Source: a virus (lineage: Duplodnaviria > Heunggongvirae > Uroviricota > Caudoviricetes). From it: a DNA stretch of 10,612 nt. The notes beneath the pieces were generated by a model that ran no database searches, had not been told where the DNA came from, and saw only the letters and a program-made list of their open reading frames with translations. Position 1 is the stretch's first letter. Each line of letters begins with the position of its first letter. The stretch lies in IMG/VR virus record IMGVR_UViG_3300029656_000140. One strand, 5' to 3'. This document shows, in pieces, positions 1 through 10,612 of the stretch. Made by a program: the position numbers and the translations under genes.

Positions 1-1827
1 GCCTTCCATCCGGGCCATTGCTTCTGCCAGAATGTCACGGGCGATGGCCTGGGTTGCGTTCTCCACCAGCCGGCCGGAGTAGGTTTCCTGCCTGGCCCAT
101 TTGTGGTTTTGCCCCACTCCTTCATAGGTCAGGCTCATCCTTCCGAAGCGGTTCGGCTGCAGTCTCGGCTTCAGATACGCCAGCTTTCTTCCAGAAGGAA
201 GCAGCATCCAAAGCGTACCGGAATAAAACTCAAATGCCAGCTTGCCGATCTCCTGTCGCTTTCCGGTCTTGAATGCCTGCGTTGCCGCCTTTTCCACATC
301 CCACCAATACTGGACGATCTTTGGATTGGCTTCCCGCCAGGAATCGATGATCTCCGGCAATTCCTCTTCTTTCAGACCCATCTGCAGAGCGCCCATGCTA
401 ATGAGTGCGCCGGAAGAACCGCCATAGCCGCAGGCCAGCTCTGCCACCTTTCCTTTCTGCCGAAGTTCCCCGTTGATGCCATGCTTCACCACCGGCACAT
501 GAAACATCTGGCTGGCAGAGGCACAGTAGATGTCCTTCCCTTCCAGAAAGGCTTCCAGCCGCCAGTCCTCCCCGGCTTCCCATGCAAGCACGCGGGCTTC
601 AATGGCGGAGAAGTCGGCCACGATGAACTCACAGCCTTCTTTTGGAATCAGCATGGTTCGGATCAGCTGTGAAAGCACATCCGGGGTGTTGCCGTAGATG
701 GTCTCGACCATATCAAAGCATCCCAGCTTCACCAGTTCCCTCGCCTCATCCAGCGTGGAAATATGGTTCTGCGGCAGATTCTGCAACTGGATATTCCGGC
801 CGGAATACCGACCCGTGCGGCTGGCCCCATAGAACTGGAACAGTCCTCTGGCTCTGCCATCTGAGCAGACACAGCGTTCTGCCGCCTGGTATTTCTTCAC
901 AGAGCTTTTTGCCATCTGGAGCCGGAGCTTCAGCATGTCCATTGCCTCAGCATCCACTCCGTTCTTGTCCAGTTCATCGATCATCTGTGCTACATCCTTT
1001 TTTCCGAGCGTGTCCATCGGGATGCCCCGTTCATCCAGCCATGACTTCAGCTGTGACACAGAGTTGGGATTCTCAAGCCCGGTCAGTTCGTAGGCTTTCT
1101 TACTCATAGCGTCCGAGAGCATCAGGTCACAGGCAATGGCCTGCTGCACCAGCTCCGTGTCGATCTTTACGCCCCGGTCATTGATACGCTCATTGACCCG
1201 GTAGTGCTTCCACTCCTGCACCGGCATCGGGAATTTCTTCAGCCGTTTATAAATGTCCACCTCAGTGTTAACATCCTGAATGCAGTAATACTTAAACTTC
1301 TCCCAGTCAGAAGGGTAATGCTCCGGAAGATTCCGGGTACGCATCCCATTACTCTTCGTTGGCTTACAGGGCATGGAAAACAGCTTGATCAGCCGCTCGC
1401 CTTCCTTGTCTTTCTGCTGGCTGGTCTTCAGCACGGTGCCAACATCCTTTAGAGCCATTGGCAAAGTCAGCGATGCCGCCATAACCATCGTGCAGATCCA
1501 GCTGTCCGGCGAAAGGAACTCTCCGGGTTTTAGGTACTGTCCGGGATAGTGCCGATTCAGATGCACCGAGAAGCACACCCGTTCAAAAGACGCATTGTGG
1601 GCGATCAGGCGCACATTGCCGGACTGGAAATCCTCCAGCAGTTCTGCCGGAATAGGTTCTCCCGATGCAAGGTCTGCACACCTGGTCTCGCCAAAGCCGT
1701 CCCCTTCATCGGTTGCCCATGCTACCAGCAGGATCTCAAAGCTTGGATCTGTGGCATAGCGGTACAGGCCGCATTTTCCGATGTCCACCTCGCTGTAGGT
1801 CTCAATATCGATCAGCGTTTCTTTCAA
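1..1827 (-). CDS. Phage family A DNA polymerase with 3'-5' exonuclease domain (partial, 609 codons, C-terminus beyond the left edge)
   Basis: Hand translation from TTG at 1827 (SD AGAGGTG upstream): MKETLIDIETYSEVDIGKCGLYRY (ExoI), AHNASFERVC (ExoII), YCIQDV (ExoIII), RTGRYSGRNIQLQNLP, motif A DFSAIEARV (589-615), motif B RQKGKVAELACGYGG (418-462), TYSGRLVENATQAIARD. All motifs are in one frame. Absent from the ORF track because no stop lies in the window. Confidence 0.96.
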   Translation of the reverse strand, partial: MKETLIDIETYSEVDIGKCGLYRYATDPSFEILLVAWATDEGDGFGETRCADLASGEPIPAELLEDFQSGNVRLIAHNASFERVCFSVHLNRHYPGQYLKPGEFLSPDSWICTMVMAASLTLPMALKDVGTVLKTSQQKDKEGERLIKLFSMPCKPTKSNGMRTRNLPEHYPSDWEKFKYYCIQDVNTEVDIYKRLKKFPMPVQEWKHYRVNERINDRGVKIDTELVQQAIACDLMLSDAMSKKAYELTGLENPNSVSQLKSWLDERGIPMDTLGKKDVAQMIDELDKNGVDAEAMDMLKLRLQMAKSSVKKYQAAERCVCSDGRARGLFQFYGASRTGRYSGRNIQLQNLPQNHISTLDEARELVKLGCFDMVETIYGNTPDVLSQLIRTMLIPKEGCEFIVADFSAIEARVLAWEAGEDWRLEAFLEGKDIYCASASQMFHVPVVKHGINGELRQKGKVAELACGYGGSSGALISMGALQMGLKEEELPEIIDSWREANPKIVQYWWDVEKAATQAFKTGKRQEIGKLAFEFYSGTLWMLLPSGRKLAYLKPRLQPNRFGRMSLTYEGVGQNHKWARQETYSGRLVENATQAIARDILAEAMARMEG

Positions 1828-1849
1828 ATATCTCACCTCTATTCGATGT

Positions 1850-1882
1850 AAAAAGCCGGAGGACACTCTGGCATCCCCCGGC
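1850..1882 (-). terminator. Intrinsic terminator between the SSB and polymerase genes
   Basis: Minus strand GCCGGGGGAUGC-CAGA-GUGUCCUCCGGC-UUUUU: 12-bp stem with three G.U pairs, followed by U5. Confidence 0.75.
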
Positions 1883-1905
1883 ACGGTTACTTATCTGTAT
1901 TTCTC

Positions 1906-2490
1906 TTAGCGAAGGTAATCCGGCAGTTCCTCACCGGCATCGCCGCCCAGAACATCCTCATCGTCCAGCGTTTCAAAATCAGACTCTGCCGATGCCTTGC
2001 CGGACAGACGGTCACCATCCTTGACGAACTGTACGTTCCCCAAGCCGGCAGCCACACCGCGGTTGCCATTGGCGTTAAAAGCGTAGAAGTTCACACTGAC
2101 GTTGCAGTAGCAGCCGGAGTATACCATCATCGGGTCCGTCACAGGCTGGACATGACGGTCCACGACCTGCGGTGCATCCTTGCTGGAGGCATTCACAAAG
2201 AAATGCTCCTGATAATTCTCATCGTCCGGACGGTCGATGTCACCGTCACGCAGAGGCAGCTTCAGGTTCGGCGGGATCTTACCGCCCCACTTACGGGTCT
2301 TGCCATCCTCCTTGGCTGCCTCCACTGCCTTGTGGATCGCCAGCAGGGTCTTCTTGTCCTCCTTCGGGATCAGGCAGGAAACGGAATACTTAGCCTCGCC
2401 GCCGTTGATGCTCTTTGCTTCAAAAATGTTTGCGAAAGAGATACGGCACGGAATCACGACCTTAGTTGCACTGGAAATCTTGTTAGCCAT
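1906..2490 (-). CDS. DUF2815 family phage ssDNA-binding protein (T7 gp2.5-like), 194 aa
   Basis: RISFANIFEAKSINGGEAKYSVSCLIPK, LKLPLRDGDIDR, YSGCYCNVSVNFYAFNANGNRGVAAGLGNVQFVKDGDRL, acidic C-terminal tail; GGAGG SD; lies between DUF2800 and PolA. Confidence 0.92.
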   Translation of the reverse strand: MANKISSATKVVIPCRISFANIFEAKSINGGEAKYSVSCLIPKEDKKTLLAIHKAVEAAKEDGKTRKWGGKIPPNLKLPLRDGDIDRPDDENYQEHFFVNASSKDAPQVVDRHVQPVTDPMMVYSGCYCNVSVNFYAFNANGNRGVAAGLGNVQFVKDGDRLSGKASAESDFETLDDEDVLGGDAGEELPDYLR

Positions 2491-2535
2491 AATAAAAATC
2501 CTCCATCAATCTGTTTTTGTGTATTGCTGCTGCCC

Positions 2536-3759
2536 TCAGTCGAGGACAGCAAATTCATCTTCCGCAGTCTGCAGATCGACTGCCTCTCTGGGGTCCGAAT
2601 CCGGGACAAGTGCCAGCTTACCGGGCGACTTGACCACATACTCTCCCAGAATCTCCTGGAACTTTTTCTTCCCCATGAGCTTTTCAAAGGCTGTCAGGGA
2701 GATCAGCTCCGTCTTATAAATATCGGTATATCCGGCCTTCTCTGCCGCGGCCACCACCGATTTCGTATCAAGGAACTGTCTCTTGCTCCTGCCTTCGACC
2801 ACCTTATACCCATCCCAGCTGACACCATGATTTATGGCCTCCGAACTGACATAGGCAAAGATGGCTTCGATCCAGGATTCGATACGGTTCAGGGTCGGCA
2901 GCATCTTCTCAATGTCTGTCTTGGAAAGCAGTGGCGGGGATTTAAAGGTCGGCACGGAGGTGTCCGGGTCAAAGGATGCTGTCGCATCTGTTTCCTCGGT
3001 TTCATCCTCCAGCACGCCGGCATCCAGATCCAGAAATTCTTCTTTCACCAGAACCATCGCTTCATCGGCACAGGCTTTGCAGGAAGTTCTGGCACGGCAG
3101 AACCGGCACCAGTCCCCGGGAACCTGCTCGCCTTTTCCTTCAAAGGCCAGCTTTGCCCTCGGTCTGACATAGGTCTCTGCCCAGTCCAGCAGTTCCTCCA
3201 CACTGCATTCAAACGTTGAGATATTTTCCAGTCTCGGCTGGATAATGGTCATGGACACCTTTTTGATGCTGTACAGATATCCGTAGGCGTGGTAAGCACC
3301 CAAAGCATACAGCATCATCTGCGGATTGTGGTCACAGTTTACGAACACGCCCTTGCCGTTCTTATAGTCCATGACATAAAGCGTACCGTCTGCGATGATC
3401 ACACAGTCACCCGTACCAAATCCCTGCGGAACGAGGTAGCTGTAATCCAGCCGCTCCTCCACCATGACCAGTGGATGCGGACAGGTCTCCTTGATGCGCT
3501 CCACTGTGGAAATGATGAACTCCGCATAGATATCGGTGTTCGCTTCCATCTCCTCATCCTCATATTCAGAGGTTGGGCGCTTCACCCGTTCATGCAGATA
3601 TTTCCGCAGCTTATACTCGCCCAGCGCATGGGCGGCAGTTCCCTCCTCGGCATACACCGAGGATTCATTTGGAAAGTTCTGCTCCAGCCTTGCAGAAAGC
3701 GTACAATTCAGCCACCTCTTCGAGCTGGAAGCAGAAAGGATTGCATGTACTTCCGGCAT
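2536..3759 (-). CDS. DUF2800 family PD-(D/E)XK (Cas4-like) nuclease, 407 aa
   Basis: HAILSASSSKRWLNC, AEEGTAAH, GFGTGDC, DYKNGKG, NPQMMLYALG, IIQPR, WCRFCRARTSC (1+3 Cys); GGAGG SD. Confidence 0.92.
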   Translation of the reverse strand: MPEVHAILSASSSKRWLNCTLSARLEQNFPNESSVYAEEGTAAHALGEYKLRKYLHERVKRPTSEYEDEEMEANTDIYAEFIISTVERIKETCPHPLVMVEERLDYSYLVPQGFGTGDCVIIADGTLYVMDYKNGKGVFVNCDHNPQMMLYALGAYHAYGYLYSIKKVSMTIIQPRLENISTFECSVEELLDWAETYVRPRAKLAFEGKGEQVPGDWCRFCRARTSCKACADEAMVLVKEEFLDLDAGVLEDETEETDATASFDPDTSVPTFKSPPLLSKTDIEKMLPTLNRIESWIEAIFAYVSSEAINHGVSWDGYKVVEGRSKRQFLDTKSVVAAAEKAGYTDIYKTELISLTAFEKLMGKKKFQEILGEYVVKSPGKLALVPDSDPREAVDLQTAEDEFAVLD

Positions 3760-4843: not shown

Positions 4844-5381
4844 TGTCTTCCTCACTTTCTGCAGCTTCCTGCTGCTCTTTTGTTTTATCTTCCATTGGTA
4901 TGTGATACTGCTCGGAAAGCCTCTTCAAAAGCAGCTCGACCATGCGTCCCGGCTCCGGGAGATTGCAAACAGGCTTCTTCAGCTCATGTGCTCTCTTGAT
5001 CTCCGCCGCCATCCCCTCGGATATGGTTTCGCCGAACACCCACACTTCATCCGCATCTTCCAGCCATTCCATTCCAAATCGGATTCCTGTGGCACGCTCC
5101 TGCGCGTCCTCATCCTTTAAGAACTGGGTAAAATACAGATGCGGAGCCAGCGGCAGGACTCCCATCGTGGCAAGAATCCTGCAGGCTGTCTTTGCCCTCT
5201 GGATGTTTGCTTCCAGCTGTGCCTTCCTACACGGCGCATCGTTTGCTGTCGGGCGGTAGGGTGAACAGATAAAAATCTTCTTCGGTGCTGATGCCAACGG
5301 GAAACCGCCGGGCGGACGAGCCTCCTTAGAACCCTCTATCTTGGCTGTAGCACTCGCCGTATTCATGCTTTTTGCATTCAT
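4833..5381 (-). CDS. DUF4406-like / nucleoside 2-deoxyribosyltransferase-fold protein (182 aa)
   Basis: KIFICSPY, PLAPHLYFTQFL, GMEWLEDADEVWVFGETISEGMAAEIKRA motifs. Start reassigned to ATG 5381 (AGGAGG 8 nt upstream). Confidence 0.8.
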   Translation of the reverse strand: MNAKSMNTASATAKIEGSKEARPPGGFPLASAPKKIFICSPYRPTANDAPCRKAQLEANIQRAKTACRILATMGVLPLAPHLYFTQFLKDEDAQERATGIRFGMEWLEDADEVWVFGETISEGMAAEIKRAHELKKPVCNLPEPGRMVELLLKRLSEQYHIPMEDKTKEQQEAAESEEDNGE

Positions 5382-5408
5382 AGGTTTTTCCTCCTGTCGA
5401 TGTACTTG

Positions 5409-5435
5409 AAAGGTGGTCCTCTCATAAAGACCACC
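5409..5435 (-). terminator. Hairpin with a short U-tract downstream of the sigma gene (weak terminator or 5' stabiliser)
   Basis: GGUGGUCUUU-AUGA-GAGGACCACC-UUU: 10-bp stem with two G.U pairs. Confidence 0.45.
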
Positions 5436-5462
5436 GTTTTGGGGCAAAAGTTAAGTAGTTCA

Positions 5463-6212
5463 TCAAAAACTTTTTCTAATTTTTTTGAGAGCACCTTTCA
5501 TCGCATAATGAACAGCCGGCTTTGTTATCCCCAATTCCTCTGCAATCTCCTGCAGCGTCATGCCTTTATAGAAGTAAAGCTGGATCACCTCGGTCTGGCG
5601 CTCGGTGAGCCTGCTCATGGCAGCGTACAGACGACGAAGCTCCCTGTCTGCCAGCATCTCGGCATTATCTTCATCCAGAAAATCCACCATAACAGAAGCA
5701 GACCAATCAGATCCGTCACATTCCAGGGAAACATTTTCTGAATCCGCCACGCGCTTATTCAGGTTGTGCTCCATCCGACGCTCGCCTTCCATCAGCAGAC
5801 GGACACTCCACTCAACATCCTCAAATGTTTCAGCCGGGATCACCTCGTAGGTCCCATCCGTAAAGTCATATCGGTAATCGTTACAGCGATCCACCGCCAT
5901 AACGGTATGTGAGCCATCCACCTCGTACACTGCATAACCGTTCTCATAAGCCGTCAGCTTCGCACCATTTACCATTGTCTGCGCCACTGCTACCGGCTCC
6001 TTTTCCATAAGGGTCTTAAAGGTCGGGAGCTTCTTTTCCACCACGGTATCGATCTTTGTCTTCAGCTCACGCAGGGTGATATGTGCGTTCACTGCAAGAT
6101 CTGCAGCCATCTGTTCTGCCGCCTGAGCCACGTTCTTTGCTATCGGCTGGCGAACCTCCATCACACCTACGCCACCGTTGATTGCTACTGCTCCAGTCAT
6201 CATGTTCATCAT
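5463..6212 (-). CDS. Sigma-70 region 4 domain protein (phage/ICE sigma-like regulator), 249 aa
   Basis: C-terminal LYAAMSRLTERQTEVIQLYFYKGMTLQEIAEELGITKPAVHYAMKGALKKIRK is a sigma70 R4 HTH. Start reassigned to ATG 6212 (GGGGGAAAGGA 7 nt upstream). Confidence 0.88.
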   Translation of the reverse strand: MMNMMTGAVAINGGVGVMEVRQPIAKNVAQAAEQMAADLAVNAHITLRELKTKIDTVVEKKLPTFKTLMEKEPVAVAQTMVNGAKLTAYENGYAVYEVDGSHTVMAVDRCNDYRYDFTDGTYEVIPAETFEDVEWSVRLLMEGERRMEHNLNKRVADSENVSLECDGSDWSASVMVDFLDEDNAEMLADRELRRLYAAMSRLTERQTEVIQLYFYKGMTLQEIAEELGITKPAVHYAMKGALKKIRKSF

Positions 6213-6343
6213 TGTTTTGTCCTTTCCCCCGGACTTCTGGGAGGGAAGGATACCGAAGCAGGACGCAGATGAGGCACCAAACCGTCTGGCAAGGCTGTGA
6301 AACACAAAAAGCCCGATTCCAGAGACAGCAGGAATAATCCCAT
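6209..6343 (-). CDS. Putative 44-aa leader peptide (uORF) translationally coupled to the sigma gene
   Basis: GGAGG (6355-6351) 7 nt before ATG 6343; MGLFLLSLESGFLCFTALPDGLVPHLRPASVSFPPRSPGERTKQ*; its TGA (6211-6209) overlaps the sigma ATG (6212-6210) as ATGA. Confidence 0.5.
   Translation of the reverse strand: MGLFLLSLESGFLCFTALPDGLVPHLRPASVSFPPRSPGERTKQ
6220..6250 (-). promoter_or_regulatory. Hairpin sequestering the sigma gene ribosome-binding site
   Basis: UCCUUCCCUC ... GGGGG(A)AAGGA pairs across the SD immediately before ATG 6212. Confidence 0.55.
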
Positions 6344-6427
6344 TCGCATACCTCCAGCACCAGCAAATAAATCGCTGTTCTATGAGGTTCTGCTATGGTA
6401 TCCTTCGCCTGCTCTAGAATCGGGCTT
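6306..6427 (-). ncRNA. Long rod-like leader RNA structure ending in a U-tract (attenuator candidate)
   Basis: 16-bp basal stem AAGCCCGAUUCUAGAG/CUCUGGAAUCGGGCUU (one U.G, valid only on the minus strand); nested CCAU/AUGG, GCA/UGC, ACCUC/GAGGU and CAGCGA/UUGCUG; then UUUG. Confidence 0.65.
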
Positions 6428-6508
6428 ACGATATTTTTTATTGATTCAGGTCTGTCCCATCAGATTCTTTTCTTTGGCTCTGTGGGGCTTGTCCCTTGAA
6501 CTGACTCT

Positions 6509-6517
6509 ATGATAACA
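6509..6517 (-). promoter_or_regulatory. Extended -10 promoter candidate for the sigma leader
   Basis: TG-T-TATCAT on the minus strand; the -35 position (TCGGAA) is poor. Confidence 0.4.
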
Positions 6518-6545
6518 GGATGACCAAGATTTTCCGATGGTGCGC

Positions 6546-6576
6546 TTCCCACACTTATGTGGGAAATTCCCCACAT
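6546..6576. promoter_or_regulatory. Two overlapping palindromic operator-like sites
   Basis: TTCCCACA-CTTA-TGTGGGAA (6546-6565) and ATGTGGG-AAATTC-CCCACAT (6557-6576). Confidence 0.55.
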
Positions 6577-6599
6577 TTCCTCATAGCTTGAAAAATGGC

Positions 6600-6636
6600 A
6601 AAAAAAAATCCGCACAGTCATCTCTGCTGTACGGAT
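6600..6636 (-). terminator. Intrinsic terminator of the XRE gene
   Basis: AUCCGUACAG-9nt-CUGUGCGGAU followed by U8, starting at the stop codon. Confidence 0.8.
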
Positions 6637-6980
6637 CACGATGCCATCGATTGCTGTAGGAATAAGGCATCCATCATTTGATCTATCATTTTTTGATTTT
6701 CTGAATTTAGTCTTTCATATTTTTCTATATGCTGCTCGTTTTTCTCCGGAGGTTCATCCTCGTCATCGAGCAGCTGTTCCGTTGAAACATCTAATGCCTT
6801 CGCAAACCGCTTCAGCATCTTAAATCCCATCTCTCCATTTTGACCGCTCTCATATTTGGAAATCTCAGCGCGATCAATGTCTACGGCTTCGCTTAGTTTG
6901 CTCTGCGTCCATTTTTTCAGCATTCGGTACTTTTTTATGTTCTGCCCAAGGATATACTCCTCGCTATGTACATCGATCAC
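6636..6980 (-). CDS. XRE/Cro-CI family HTH transcriptional regulator (114 aa)
   Basis: LGQNIKKYRMLKKWTQSKLSEAVDIDRAEISKYESG...LKRFAKALDVSTEQLL. Start reassigned to GTG 6980 (AAGGGGG 8 nt upstream). Confidence 0.9.
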   Translation of the reverse strand: MIDVHSEEYILGQNIKKYRMLKKWTQSKLSEAVDIDRAEISKYESGQNGEMGFKMLKRFAKALDVSTEQLLDDEDEPPEKNEQHIEKYERLNSENQKMIDQMMDALFLQQSMAS

Positions 6981-7013
6981 GCCAGACACCCCCTTTCTCT
7001 TTTGCAAGGTAAT

Positions 7014-7092
7014 AAAAAAAGACCGAAACACATGAGATACAGGCCGCTGGCATTTACCAACGCTACACTTGCTTCTCTAATGTGTTTCGGTC
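7014..7092 (-). terminator. Long rod-like terminator/attenuator upstream of the XRE gene
   Basis: Perfect 13-bp basal stem GACCGAAACACAU/AUGUGUUUCGGUC, inner GAGA/UCUC and CGUUGGU/GCCAGCG, then U7. Confidence 0.7.
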
Positions 7093-7197
7093 CTTTAAGA
7101 TTGTATGTTCTTAAAAAGCCGTGTGTATCAGAACGATAACTGTCTTTCAACCCACAAACGAGCGCACTGCGACCTACATATCATTGACTTTGAAATA

Positions 7198-7223
7198 AGA
7201 ACCAAACTTATAACTGTGGTTCT
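7198..7223. repeat. 26-bp imperfect palindrome (operator-like)
   Basis: AGAACCA-AAC-TTATAA-CTG-TGGTTCT. Confidence 0.5.
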
Positions 7224-7410
7224 ATCATCATGAAATTAAATAATTTAAATCAACTCTATGTAAGGTGCTCTTCACACCGCTCGCCGATCCGCTATTCCTC
7301 CTACCATGCGAATCAGGCTGAAATCAAATTATCTTTCTGTACACCTCCTTATGACAAATTTGTTTTTATTCAACTTATTTATGGCACCACTATTCTTTGT
7401 GGTATCTTTT

Positions 7411-7439
7411 ATCATAGCAGATATCGTGTCAAGCGTAAA
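7411..7439 (-). promoter_or_regulatory. Sigma-A promoter candidate (leftward)
   Basis: TTTACG-17bp-TATGAT with a TG-n extension. Confidence 0.45.
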
Positions 7440-7576
7440 TAGCTTTTAGCAAATTTTGTCAAAAGGTTCAGAAACAGGTCGTCAGTTTGTGCGAAATGTC
7501 AATATCCATTCCCTGTTATCCGCAAAATCACTCGTATTTCGCACACGCCTATTGTGTAATTTTCCCCTGAAACGAC

Positions 7577-7623
7577 AAAAGGAGCCGAAGACCATGGTTT
7601 CTCAACCACAATCCTCGGCTCCT
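7577..7623 (-). terminator. GNRA-capped 20-bp terminator hairpin
   Basis: AGGAGCCGAGGAUUGUGGUU-GAGA-AACCAUGGUCUUCGGCUCCU-UUU; four G.U pairs that work only on the minus strand. Confidence 0.8.
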
Positions 7624-7645
7624 ATTAGCCCTTCATCAAATCCAA

Positions 7646-7879
7646 TTATCCGATGGTTATACTCTTTTTCACTTCGTAAACAGCCAGCCTTCCATCGCTG
7701 CGCCGTTTTACCTCGGCATTATTGCCCCTACTTGTAATCTCCCGGATGCTTTTCATGATGAGCACATCGTCATCAGCTGTACTTGCAGAAACGCTGTTAT
7801 GTGTTGCCGCCTTGCTTCCGAGCATCGCCTGTTTGCCTTTTGATTTGTAACTACCACATTCTGAAATCAATATGCTCAT
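7646..7879 (-). CDS. Small hypothetical protein with a basic C-terminal half (up to 77 aa; start uncertain)
   Basis: ATGA overlap with the upstream gene stop; C-terminus IREITSRGNNAEVKRRSDGRLAVYEVKKSI looks like a compact alpha/beta unit; followed directly by a terminator. Confidence 0.6.
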   Translation of the reverse strand: MSILISECGSYKSKGKQAMLGSKAATHNSVSASTADDDVLIMKSIREITSRGNNAEVKRRSDGRLAVYEVKKSITIG

Positions 7880-9133: not shown

Positions 9134-9628
9134 ATGAAAAAAGATACGAACTTACTAGACACACAGGATGTCCGGGCTGAAGCATCCACCGCGCTTACAC
9201 CGAATGCGACCAACGGTGAAAAGATCAAAGCTCTGCGAACCGCACAAGGTATGAGCATGACCGAACTCTCCAGACGAGCATCCATGTCTGATCGTGCCAT
9301 TCGCTATATCGAAGCCGGAGAGCGCGAACCAAGCGTGGACGCAATCCAGAAGATTGCCGCTGCTCTTGGTGTCACGACCGACTACTTTATGGATGATGCC
9401 ACTTTCCAGAAGGAACTCAGCGATGACCAATTCTACGCTGATGTCCGTAAGAAGTATGGCTCCCGCGGTGTAGCGCAGGCAAAGAAAATAAAAGAACAGA
9501 CCTCTGCCCTTTTTGCAGGCGGTGAGCTGTCCGAAGAAGATCAGGCTAATTTTATTAAAGAAATGGAAGCTCTCTTCCTTGATGCAAAGGAAGAGGCAAA
9601 AAAGTTTACTCCTAAAAAATATCTGTGA
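9134..9628 (+). CDS. XRE family repressor (ImmR-like), 164 aa
   Basis: GEKIKALRTAQGMSMTELSRRASMSDRAIRYIEAGEREPSVDAIQKIAAALGVTTDYF; C-terminal ALFAGGELSEED...KKFTPKKY; GGAGG 6 nt before ATG 9134; adjacent to an ImmA-type peptidase. Confidence 0.92.
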   Translation: MKKDTNLLDTQDVRAEASTALTPNATNGEKIKALRTAQGMSMTELSRRASMSDRAIRYIEAGEREPSVDAIQKIAAALGVTTDYFMDDATFQKELSDDQFYADVRKKYGSRGVAQAKKIKEQTSALFAGGELSEEDQANFIKEMEALFLDAKEEAKKFTPKKYL

Positions 9629-9655
9629 TCAAATTGCAGAGGAAAGGAGTCGCTG

Positions 9656-10321
9656 TTGGACAACTTTGCTATTACTGCCGCCGACACTTTAAGCCGCCGA
9701 TACAAGAGCAATGACCCGGAAGCTATCATTGCCCAGCGCGCCATTAAAATCAAAGACATCAGATTCTGCGAAGAGCTCCTTGGTTTTTACACTGTACTTC
9801 TGAATTGTGAATACATCGGCATTAATCCAAACTGCTCAAAGCAACAACGCAGATCCGCATTGGCTCACGAACTTGGACACGCTATTTTTGACCGGAAACA
9901 TGCGGCATCCGGTCAGGCTTTCCAAGACACCTATTTTTATAGTCTCAGCAGCGCAAAGGCTGAACGAAGGGCGAATACATTTGCTGCTGAACTGCTGCTA
10001 TCAGACGATGATGTGCTGAAACCAATCGGCTTCTATGAATTTAATGCCGACAGGCTTCAGATGGAGGCTTCTCTTCCAACTCACTGTTCCAGCACATATC
10101 GCGCCTTGAAATACCATGAGCTTCTGCAGGACTTTCAGTATTCGCATCCAGGATTCGCCACCCTTGAGGAAATCGCACAGACGGCCGGAATTGAAAAACA
10201 CTTCGTTGATTTTAAGCTGAACATTCTTACTGCAAAAGGGTATCAGCTTCCTGCTGTGCCAGAACTTCAGAGCAACTTTCTGAAGAATTCCATGAAGAAT
10301 TGCTCTAAATATTACGATTAA
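9656..10321 (+). CDS. ImmA/IrrE family Zn metallo-endopeptidase (anti-repressor), 221 aa
   Basis: IGINPN..QQRRSALAHELGH (HExxH), AERRANTFAAELLL; TTG start with AAGGAG SD. Confidence 0.92.
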   Translation: MDNFAITAADTLSRRYKSNDPEAIIAQRAIKIKDIRFCEELLGFYTVLLNCEYIGINPNCSKQQRRSALAHELGHAIFDRKHAASGQAFQDTYFYSLSSAKAERRANTFAAELLLSDDDVLKPIGFYEFNADRLQMEASLPTHCSSTYRALKYHELLQDFQYSHPGFATLEEIAQTAGIEKHFVDFKLNILTAKGYQLPAVPELQSNFLKNSMKNCSKYYD

Positions 10322-10339
10322 ACATGGAGGTGACTGCTT

Positions 10340-10612
10340 ATGACAAAAGAACGCGTCTATGTAAAAGTCGATTCCACATTCGACCCAACCGGTTTTATGC
10401 AGCCGACATCGATCACCTGGTCGGATGGACGTACCTTCCCAATCGAAACAGTGCGCGACTTCCGCCCCGCCGGGACTGCTGATAATGGTTACTCCGGAGA
10501 CTGTTTCACTGTCCTGATCCAAGGACAGGAGAAGCACCTGTTCTTTGAACACATCGACCCTCGCTTCACCGGACGGCTTGGCCGCTGGTATGTGGAGCGG
10601 ACGGCACAATAA
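10340..10612 (+). CDS. Hypothetical 90-aa beta-rich protein of a type I recall next to Y-family (DinB/UmuC) polymerase genes in Clostridia
   Basis: GGAGGT SD; VYVKV..F...G.MQP.SITWSDGR.F.I..V, FTVLIQGQEKHLFFE, RWYVE pattern. The gene call is solid; the association is from memory and unverified. Confidence 0.75.
   Translation: MTKERVYVKVDSTFDPTGFMQPTSITWSDGRTFPIETVRDFRPAGTADNGYSGDCFTVLIQGQEKHLFFEHIDPRFTGRLGRWYVERTAQ

Follow-up and report, generated by a model that had tools for sequence, protein, structure and literature searches.

The window, by which we mean the whole 10,612-nt stretch of the viral record IMGVR_UViG_3300029656_000140, is part of a temperate-phage-like element. On its minus strand, to which all coordinates below refer unless marked otherwise, it carries in order an XRE-family helix-turn-helix gene (6636-6980; Pfam HTH_3, E-value 7e-12) that likely encodes a repressor, an RNA leader, the gene of a 249-aa protein with sigma-70 region 4, and genes for a DUF2800 exonuclease, an ssDNA-binding protein and a family A DNA polymerase (1-3759; Pfam). 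The three replication genes stand in the same order in annotated records of Ca. Heliusvirales (PMC11283538). These phages are defined by terminase phylogeny and nine marker genes; the terminase lies outside the window, which holds only the three replication genes. The main text of the Heliusvirales paper mentions neither "sigma" nor "RNA structure". Close relatives of the window occur within human-gut proviruses of 73-86 kb, and also in genomes of Clostridium, Faecalibacterium, Lawsonibacter, Ruminococcus and Acetatifactor.

The surroundings contain several other elements. A gut-2 RNA motif lies 1.1 kb upstream of the leader (7611-7658), followed by a strong terminator-like hairpin (7623-7580), and gut-2 is also found upstream in two homologous loci (L028 and L205). 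On the plus strand, 9137-10609 holds an XRE gene paired with an IrrE/ImmA-like peptidase (Peptidase_M78), with a small ORF downstream, which is likely a DNA-damage-sensing immunity module. Among the homologous loci, an HDV-like ribozyme was found downstream in L053 (8496-8567) and a group II intron adjoins the leader in L302 (17-92) and L393.

Between the XRE gene and the leader, a hairpin with a U-run at the 3' end of the XRE gene (about 6637-6600) is followed by two imperfect dyads (6575-6558 and 6553-6538). Similar dyads are present upstream of homologous leaders. The dyads are likely repressor operators and lie immediately before a promoter-like element. This element, an extended -10 at 6517-6509, had been read from the sequence in the original prediction, and an element at the identical position was found in homologues. 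It is missing from the list of a consensus promoter scan because no -35 qualifies. The transcript is predicted to start near 6502.

The 249-aa protein (5463-6212) consists of an unclassified N-terminal domain and sigma-70 region 4 (Pfam PF04545, E-value 1e-15). The gene had been labelled "sigma", which fits region 4; for region 2, Pfam gave no Sigma70_r2 match, and a weak ECF match covered residues 136-238. For the N-terminal domain, neither a solved relative nor a Pfam model was found, and a search of the ESM Atlas with the 249-aa protein returned sigma-region-4 clusters only. The N-terminal domain (about 130 aa; 5700-6095) defines a large family, with 1235 representatives at an E-value of 0.001 when the whole protein was the query.

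The recognition helix of region 4 (5490-5530) is hypervariable among homologues that are 65-99% identical. Directly after the gene lies a likely target promoter (5418-5458), made up of a variable element (5458-5445) and a conserved element (5428-5418). Among the 18 helix variants listed, the variable element 3' of the stop codon changes with the recognition helix and is always accompanied by the conserved second element. We suggest that the helix and the element behind the stop codon may form a natural helix-to-site code, and that the protein is likely an activator or sigma subunit that sets the promoter specificity of the replication operon. In four loci (L101, L102, L110 and L273), the promoter-like element that follows the gene also has a copy ahead of the leader, which suggests auto-activation there.

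The leader and its predicted folds

The leader begins with a 5' domain, P1 (6444-6503), which is variable in length and has a short closing helix, as judged from folding and alignment. It is followed by hairpin H1 (6398-6434), which was delineated by alignment and by a covariance model, R1. H1 has two short stems, a purine-rich internal loop and a 13-nt apical loop, and its 5' strand doubles as the 5' arm of a much longer hairpin, the rod (6427-6309). The rod had been part of the original prediction, and its 16-bp basal stem (6427-6412 with 6324-6309) was recovered in a predicted fold of -59.7 kcal/mol, which would represent the OFF state. Folding of region 6300-6430 gave z = -6.46, and none of 200 shuffled sequences was equally stable. 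In 25 leaders, 97.5% of the cells of the basal stem were paired, with no two-sided changes.

A U-tract (6300-6310), kept in the window's clade, follows the basal stem and makes the rod a possible intrinsic terminator. The stem runs directly into the U-tract, but it encloses 87 nt, the rod is absent from the terminator-scan list, and two RNA-library contigs cross it. The contig sets concerned cover 6167-6362 and 6269-6439; since they are small-share and unstranded and may be DNA, we set them aside as expression evidence. Further downstream, a modest hairpin (6250-6220, -13.0 kcal/mol), which had also been noted before, hides the SD sequence of the downstream gene (6228-6220). All of its cells were paired in the 25 leaders.

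Within the 3' arm of the rod starts an upstream ORF (uORF) of 44 codons (6343-6209). Its SD (6355-6351) stands 7 nt ahead of the AUG at 6343. The predicted fold pairs both SD and AUG with the 5' arm, and the stop codon of the uORF overlaps the start of the downstream gene at 6212-6209. All of these features are present as first described. On this basis, it had been proposed that translation of the uORF blocks termination and passes ribosomes on to the downstream gene via start-stop coupling. We examined this proposal in 138 homologous loci, of which 14 had no parsable leader and were left out, while the remainder comprised 76 distinct leaders.

The start-stop overlap was retained in only 14 of the 76 leaders, namely in the window and 13 close relatives. 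In 37 leaders the uORF stops after four codons, in 11 it ends at another upstream stop, in eight it runs out of frame into the gene and in six it is fused to the gene in frame. In the window's subclade, by contrast, 64 of 66 leaders have the uORF SD at 7 nt from an AUG or UUG start, though spacer and partner strands vary, which speaks for the proposal. In the sister subclade, none of the ten leaders has an SD at that spacing, and other bases maintain the helix; nor was the SD seen in the aligned distant lineages. Moreover, the uORF SD is still paired in the predicted ON fold of the window. As frame and overlap are so poorly conserved, we reject translational coupling as the mechanism of the family, in which 62 of 76 leaders lack the overlap, and consider it very unlikely as an explanation of the leader. 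A lack of conserved frame and overlap in homologues had been named beforehand as an outcome that would refute the proposal. In the window's subclade, preservation of the uORF SD at 7 nt despite varying spacers suggests that ribosomes may bind at this SD, and a ribosome-binding role without coupling is possible in the window's subclade. A functional uORF protein was rejected as well, as there was no Pfam match and neither sequence nor length is kept.

Release of the downstream SD would be better explained by an RNA helix that forms without a ribosome. A repeat search revealed that part of the 5' arm of the rod (6406-6387) is complementary to the strand that masks the SD of the gene (6264-6245), a relationship that, like the palindromic loop described below, was absent from the original prediction. 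The former, which we call the anti-anti-SD strand, lies within the rod when OFF and is predicted to pair with the latter, the anti-SD strand, when ON. The anti-SD strand would thus have two alternative partners, as indicated by the repeat search, folding and cross-lineage comparison, and in the predicted folds these pairings are mutually exclusive, as in a riboswitch-like expression platform.

Among 41 distinct leaders, the energy of the alternative helix ranged from -18.8 to -29.9 kcal/mol. It appeared in the free minimum-energy fold of two leaders, in 38 when the 3' arm of the rod was blocked and in 37 when the 5' arm was removed. In the window, the probability that the SD is unpaired rose from 0.11 in the free fold to 0.40 with the 3' arm blocked and 0.63 with the 5' arm removed. 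Covariation of the helix within the window's clade was weak (7 versus 4.1 cells, with 32 of 500 shuffles as high). Stronger support came from distant lineages, where the strands differ yet still pair: both strands change together, and 19 of the 20 rows listed reach -12 kcal/mol or better, while the 20th reached -19.5 once a longer range was searched. Distant lineages also possess a separate hairpin with a U-run after the rod. A segment of the rod 3' strand can pair into this hairpin, and two-sided changes between lineages were seen by eye in this pair.

The leader might also be nothing but a long terminator or a passive damper of translation, without a switch. The strong stem followed by a U-tract would fit this, and other related phages have just a hairpin and a U-run ahead of this gene. 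Such a leader would, however, leave unexplained why the alternative helix is kept across lineages, why a second long-range pair covaries in distant lineages and why the loop palindromes exist, and we consider it the least probable of all the explanations weighed here. From the predicted folds, we propose that the leader is a conserved RNA that switches between two folds. This retains the earlier idea of a conserved structured leader that locks the SD of the gene until the rod is opened, and drops the translational coupling that was thought to open it.

Distribution of the leader family

The invariant core of the leader was found in 42 viral matches, all of them in contigs that also encode the sigma-region-4 protein. 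Two distant homologues of the protein had alignable leaders (loci L115 and L205). A degenerate pattern derived from three leaders (the window's clade, L115 and L205) and blind to the loop of H1 recovered 93 loci with 55 distinct matches, of which 49 had the full architecture. The other six, which lacked the downstream anti-SD, SD and gene, were dropped by eye as chance matches; one of these had an off-centre palindrome. A looser pattern gave 73 distinct matches, most of which were dropped before the counts.

Annotated members include four Ca. Heliusvirales phages (NatCom_21982, _43819, _991 and _27610), Terrisporobacter phage TPDSL_ph1, Gardnerella phage vB_Gva_AB1, Erysipelothrix phage phi1605 and a Peptoclostridium megaplasmid. 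In these annotated distant members, the leaders mostly stand before sigma-region-4-like genes whose N-terminal parts are unrelated. Twelve annotated phage regions were taken for comparison. Nine were folded at the first gene, with the leader present in four and missing in five, and the remaining three, scanned only with covariance model R1, gave no match.

Several loci depart from the common arrangement. Locus L507 (G551:C11:89978-90029) has a full leader before a gene that looks like an XRE-like helix-turn-helix gene rather than a sigma-region-4 gene. In locus L043, a copy of the gene without a leader is joined directly to another reading frame; the same contig holds a normal copy (L042). Multiple leaders were found in genome G1263, where contig C6 carries the same palindrome twice (L503 and L504), and in genome G004, with several leaders (L049, L051, L514) and two different palindromes. 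Both genomes bear on the question of cross-talk between co-resident prophages.

Most Lachnospiraceae homologues of the protein carry another conserved leader (L101-L123 except L115 and L120; L273-L275), with a long stem, an A-run in the apical loop, a U-tract and an SD-hiding hairpin, and without a match in Rfam. It looks like a second undescribed family, in which pairing of the loop-closing strand with the anti-SD could provide an analogous switch.

A scan against Rfam 15 gave no match to the leader of the window, and 40 source scans covering relatives gave none either. The earlier view that the leader is not a described element agrees with our literature searches, in whose listings we found no description of it. 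In the Fremin and Bhatt catalogue (PMC8040213), the rows near DUF2800 are short motifs unmatched to the leader, and a candidate may exist among the catalogue's sequences. Whatever its trigger, the leader appears to be a widely spread, uncatalogued RNA switch that is predicted to act on two levels at the head of the replication operon.

The palindromic loop of hairpin H1

H1 is near-invariant among the 76 leaders. Its stems show no covariation and were part of the search patterns. At the centre of its apical loop lies a self-complementary hexamer (6413-6418). Across lineages, the loop contains seven different hexamers, every one of which is self-complementary. A central palindrome was present in all 49 distinct members recovered with the loop-blind pattern and in all 24 representatives, which cover the seven hexamers, versus 3% expected for random loops; related rows in these counts are not independent events.

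The symmetric positions of the hexamer also covary. The three symmetric column pairs had 16 two-sided changes versus 4.9 in shuffles, and their pairing score was 0.618 versus 0.179, a level reached by none of 500 shuffles; slid controls did not exceed 0.172. This test was run on a plain MAFFT alignment in which about six rows are misplaced. Model R1 of H1, run on two samples of 151 genomes, gave 12 matches outside the window's clade. Ten of these had a downstream anti-SD and SD, and all ten had a central palindrome, with no new hexamer. The two weakest matches, which had neither the palindrome nor the architecture, were dropped from the count. Because R1 was trained on palindromic loops, this test is only partly independent. 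At the level of sequence comparison, we regard it as shown that the loop hexamer is kept self-complementary.

The central pair of the palindrome joins neighbouring bases, which is impossible within one molecule. The selected pairing must thus be either between two RNAs or that of a DNA dyad. The comparison of loops leads us to predict that the hexamer at 6418-6413 is an RNA-RNA dimerization site. H1 was predicted to gain 9.4 to 19.9 kcal/mol as a homodimer relative to two monomers. In the free fold, the palindrome is hidden under the distant 3' arm of the rod in 22 of the 24 representatives, and only one of the 24 has a 3' arm that forms a perfect palindrome of its own. In the window, it is the basal stem of the rod that covers the hexamer.

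We also looked for other sequences that could match the loop. All five near-complete proviruses had one H1 per genome, and none of five annotated phages had a second strong copy, the second match in TPDSL_ph1 being weak (17.8 bits). A separate trans-acting copy of the loop was sought in ten phage records and not found, and five host genomes held no second leader beyond that of a second prophage. With at most one strong H1 per phage genome searched, the only matching loop found is that of another copy of the leader.

Leader-leader pairing as a possible trigger

These observations can be combined into a model that starts from the order seen in the sequence, namely promoter-like element, leader, sigma-region-4 gene and replication operon. 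H1 would fold first on a new transcript. If its loop stays unbound, the 3' arm would invade, pairing with the palindrome and flanking bases to form the rod. The SD hairpin would mask the SD and the gene would be off; the U-tract, or the separate terminator hairpin in distant lineages, may also end transcription. If the basal stem is prevented from forming, the anti-anti-SD strand would instead capture the anti-SD and the SD would open. We propose that a second leader may prevent the stem by kissing the exposed loop of the nascent transcript, thereby blocking the rod. The activator protein would then switch on the replication operon at the promoter that follows the activator gene. If kissing blocks the rod, output would climb steeply as transcripts accumulate after relief of XRE repression, and our best reading of the modelled folds is that the leader acts as an RNA concentration sensor. 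That pairing of leaders through the palindromic loop turns the gene on is a tentative proposal, which we place slightly on the doubtful side of even. That self-pairing of leaders matters, in either direction, we consider somewhat probable.

Folding of whole leaders sets a constraint on this proposal. Free co-folding of two full leaders gave no intermolecular palindrome pairs in the rows listed, with the rod preferred at equilibrium, and opening the palindrome in a full leader costs about 5 to 15 kcal/mol. A dimer would therefore need a kinetic, co-transcriptional window. It also counts against the proposal that another leader is found with many homologues of the protein.

Pairing could also act in the opposite direction. 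An extended H1 duplex would occupy the anti-anti-SD strand and so push the leader OFF rather than ON, in which case lysogeny would be favoured at high copy number, similar to multiplicity counting. The predicted H1 homodimer does include the strand needed by the ON helix, and in most distant lineages the ON helix takes the whole 3' strand of H1. Yet the monomer already folds into the OFF rod, which makes a second OFF route seem redundant, and it is the palindrome that the rod specifically conceals. We regard pairing as an OFF signal as improbable.

A third explanation keeps the two-fold switch and assigns its trigger to a protein, an antisense RNA or processing, with the palindrome serving as a DNA dyad or as the site of a dimeric protein. 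The hexamer lies at the centre of an imperfect inverted repeat formed by H1, whose core is near-invariant in the window's clade while the 3' partner drifts. Loss of the 5' arm is by itself enough to flip the fold, and an internal start or a cut would cause such a loss; the unclassified N-terminal domain of the protein could bind RNA. A protein would, however, have to match seven unrelated hexamers with seven specificities, and the hexamer is constant in a clade whose members differ in upstream genes and recognition helix. An antisense partner has no need of self-complementarity, and the consensus scan listed no plus-strand promoter-like site in 5300-7800. Such a trigger seems unlikely, although it deserves more weight than pairing as an OFF signal.

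Returning to pairing as an ON signal, the leaders would represent gene control by mRNA homodimerization, in which two leaders kiss, the rod is blocked, and transcription and translation of a phage master activator are released. We advance this as a possibility that falls just short of what we would call probable. If true, it would provide a protein-free threshold for the lysis-lysogeny decision, in a phage leader family that counts its own copies. It would also be a new route by which temperate phages of a common human-gut lineage filter leaky transcription or count genomes, and different palindromes would insulate co-resident prophages from one another. Natural orthogonal palindromes would supply ready-made cooperative RNA switches.

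The closest parallels in bacteria are the antisense-controlled leaders of plasmid rep genes (R1 copA/tap-repA, ColIb-P9 repY-repZ, pT181 and pIP501). In these, long-range alternative pairing reportedly decides SD access or termination, and a loop-loop contact with a separate antisense RNA is said to be the trigger, following a copy-number logic. The coupled leader ORF is reportedly conserved in R1 and ColIb-P9, whereas coupling is not conserved in the phage leader, whose loop matches itself. Within the same phage regions, the DUF2800 motif and gut-2 of Rfam are elements of the same kind, but no Rfam family matches the leader.

For the regulated protein, the nearest comparison is Tn916 Sig7-Sig8 (Orf7/Orf8), described as a split sigma factor in which the region-4-only Sig7 directs transcription of the element together with its partner (bioRxiv 10.64898/2026.10.01.756105). 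Like Sig7, the 249-aa protein belongs to a Firmicutes mobile element and has region 4 as its only Pfam-supported sigma region. Unlike Sig7, it carries a further N-terminal domain of 170 aa. A partner subunit was not identified for it here, and what is described for Tn916 includes no such leader. Overproduction of the Tn916 sigma factor is toxic (bioRxiv 10.64898/2026.10.01.756105), and with such toxicity a tight switch would be favoured.

Functional RNA dimers are rare, and those listed in the relevant part of a review are retroviral genomes, fly mRNA localization signals and ribozymes, with bacterial or phage gene control not among them. The most similar RNA is the dimerization site (DIS) of the HIV-1 leader, where a six-base palindrome is concealed in the monomer and becomes accessible in the dimer through a U5:DIS / U5:AUG switch (PMC7357161). 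The phage leader differs in belonging to an mRNA of a DNA phage, which packages no RNA genome, in its predicted output, which is gene expression, and in having no sequence relation to HIV-1; its dimer is a prediction, with computed energies that are favourable for H1 alone and unfavourable for full leaders at equilibrium. Like the part of the HIV-1 system described there, the phage leader has a six-base palindrome in an apical loop, here kept by compensating changes, and an intramolecular partner that hides it in the predicted monomer. In both, the alternative pairing involves the translation start region, and kissing as well as extended-duplex forms are possible.
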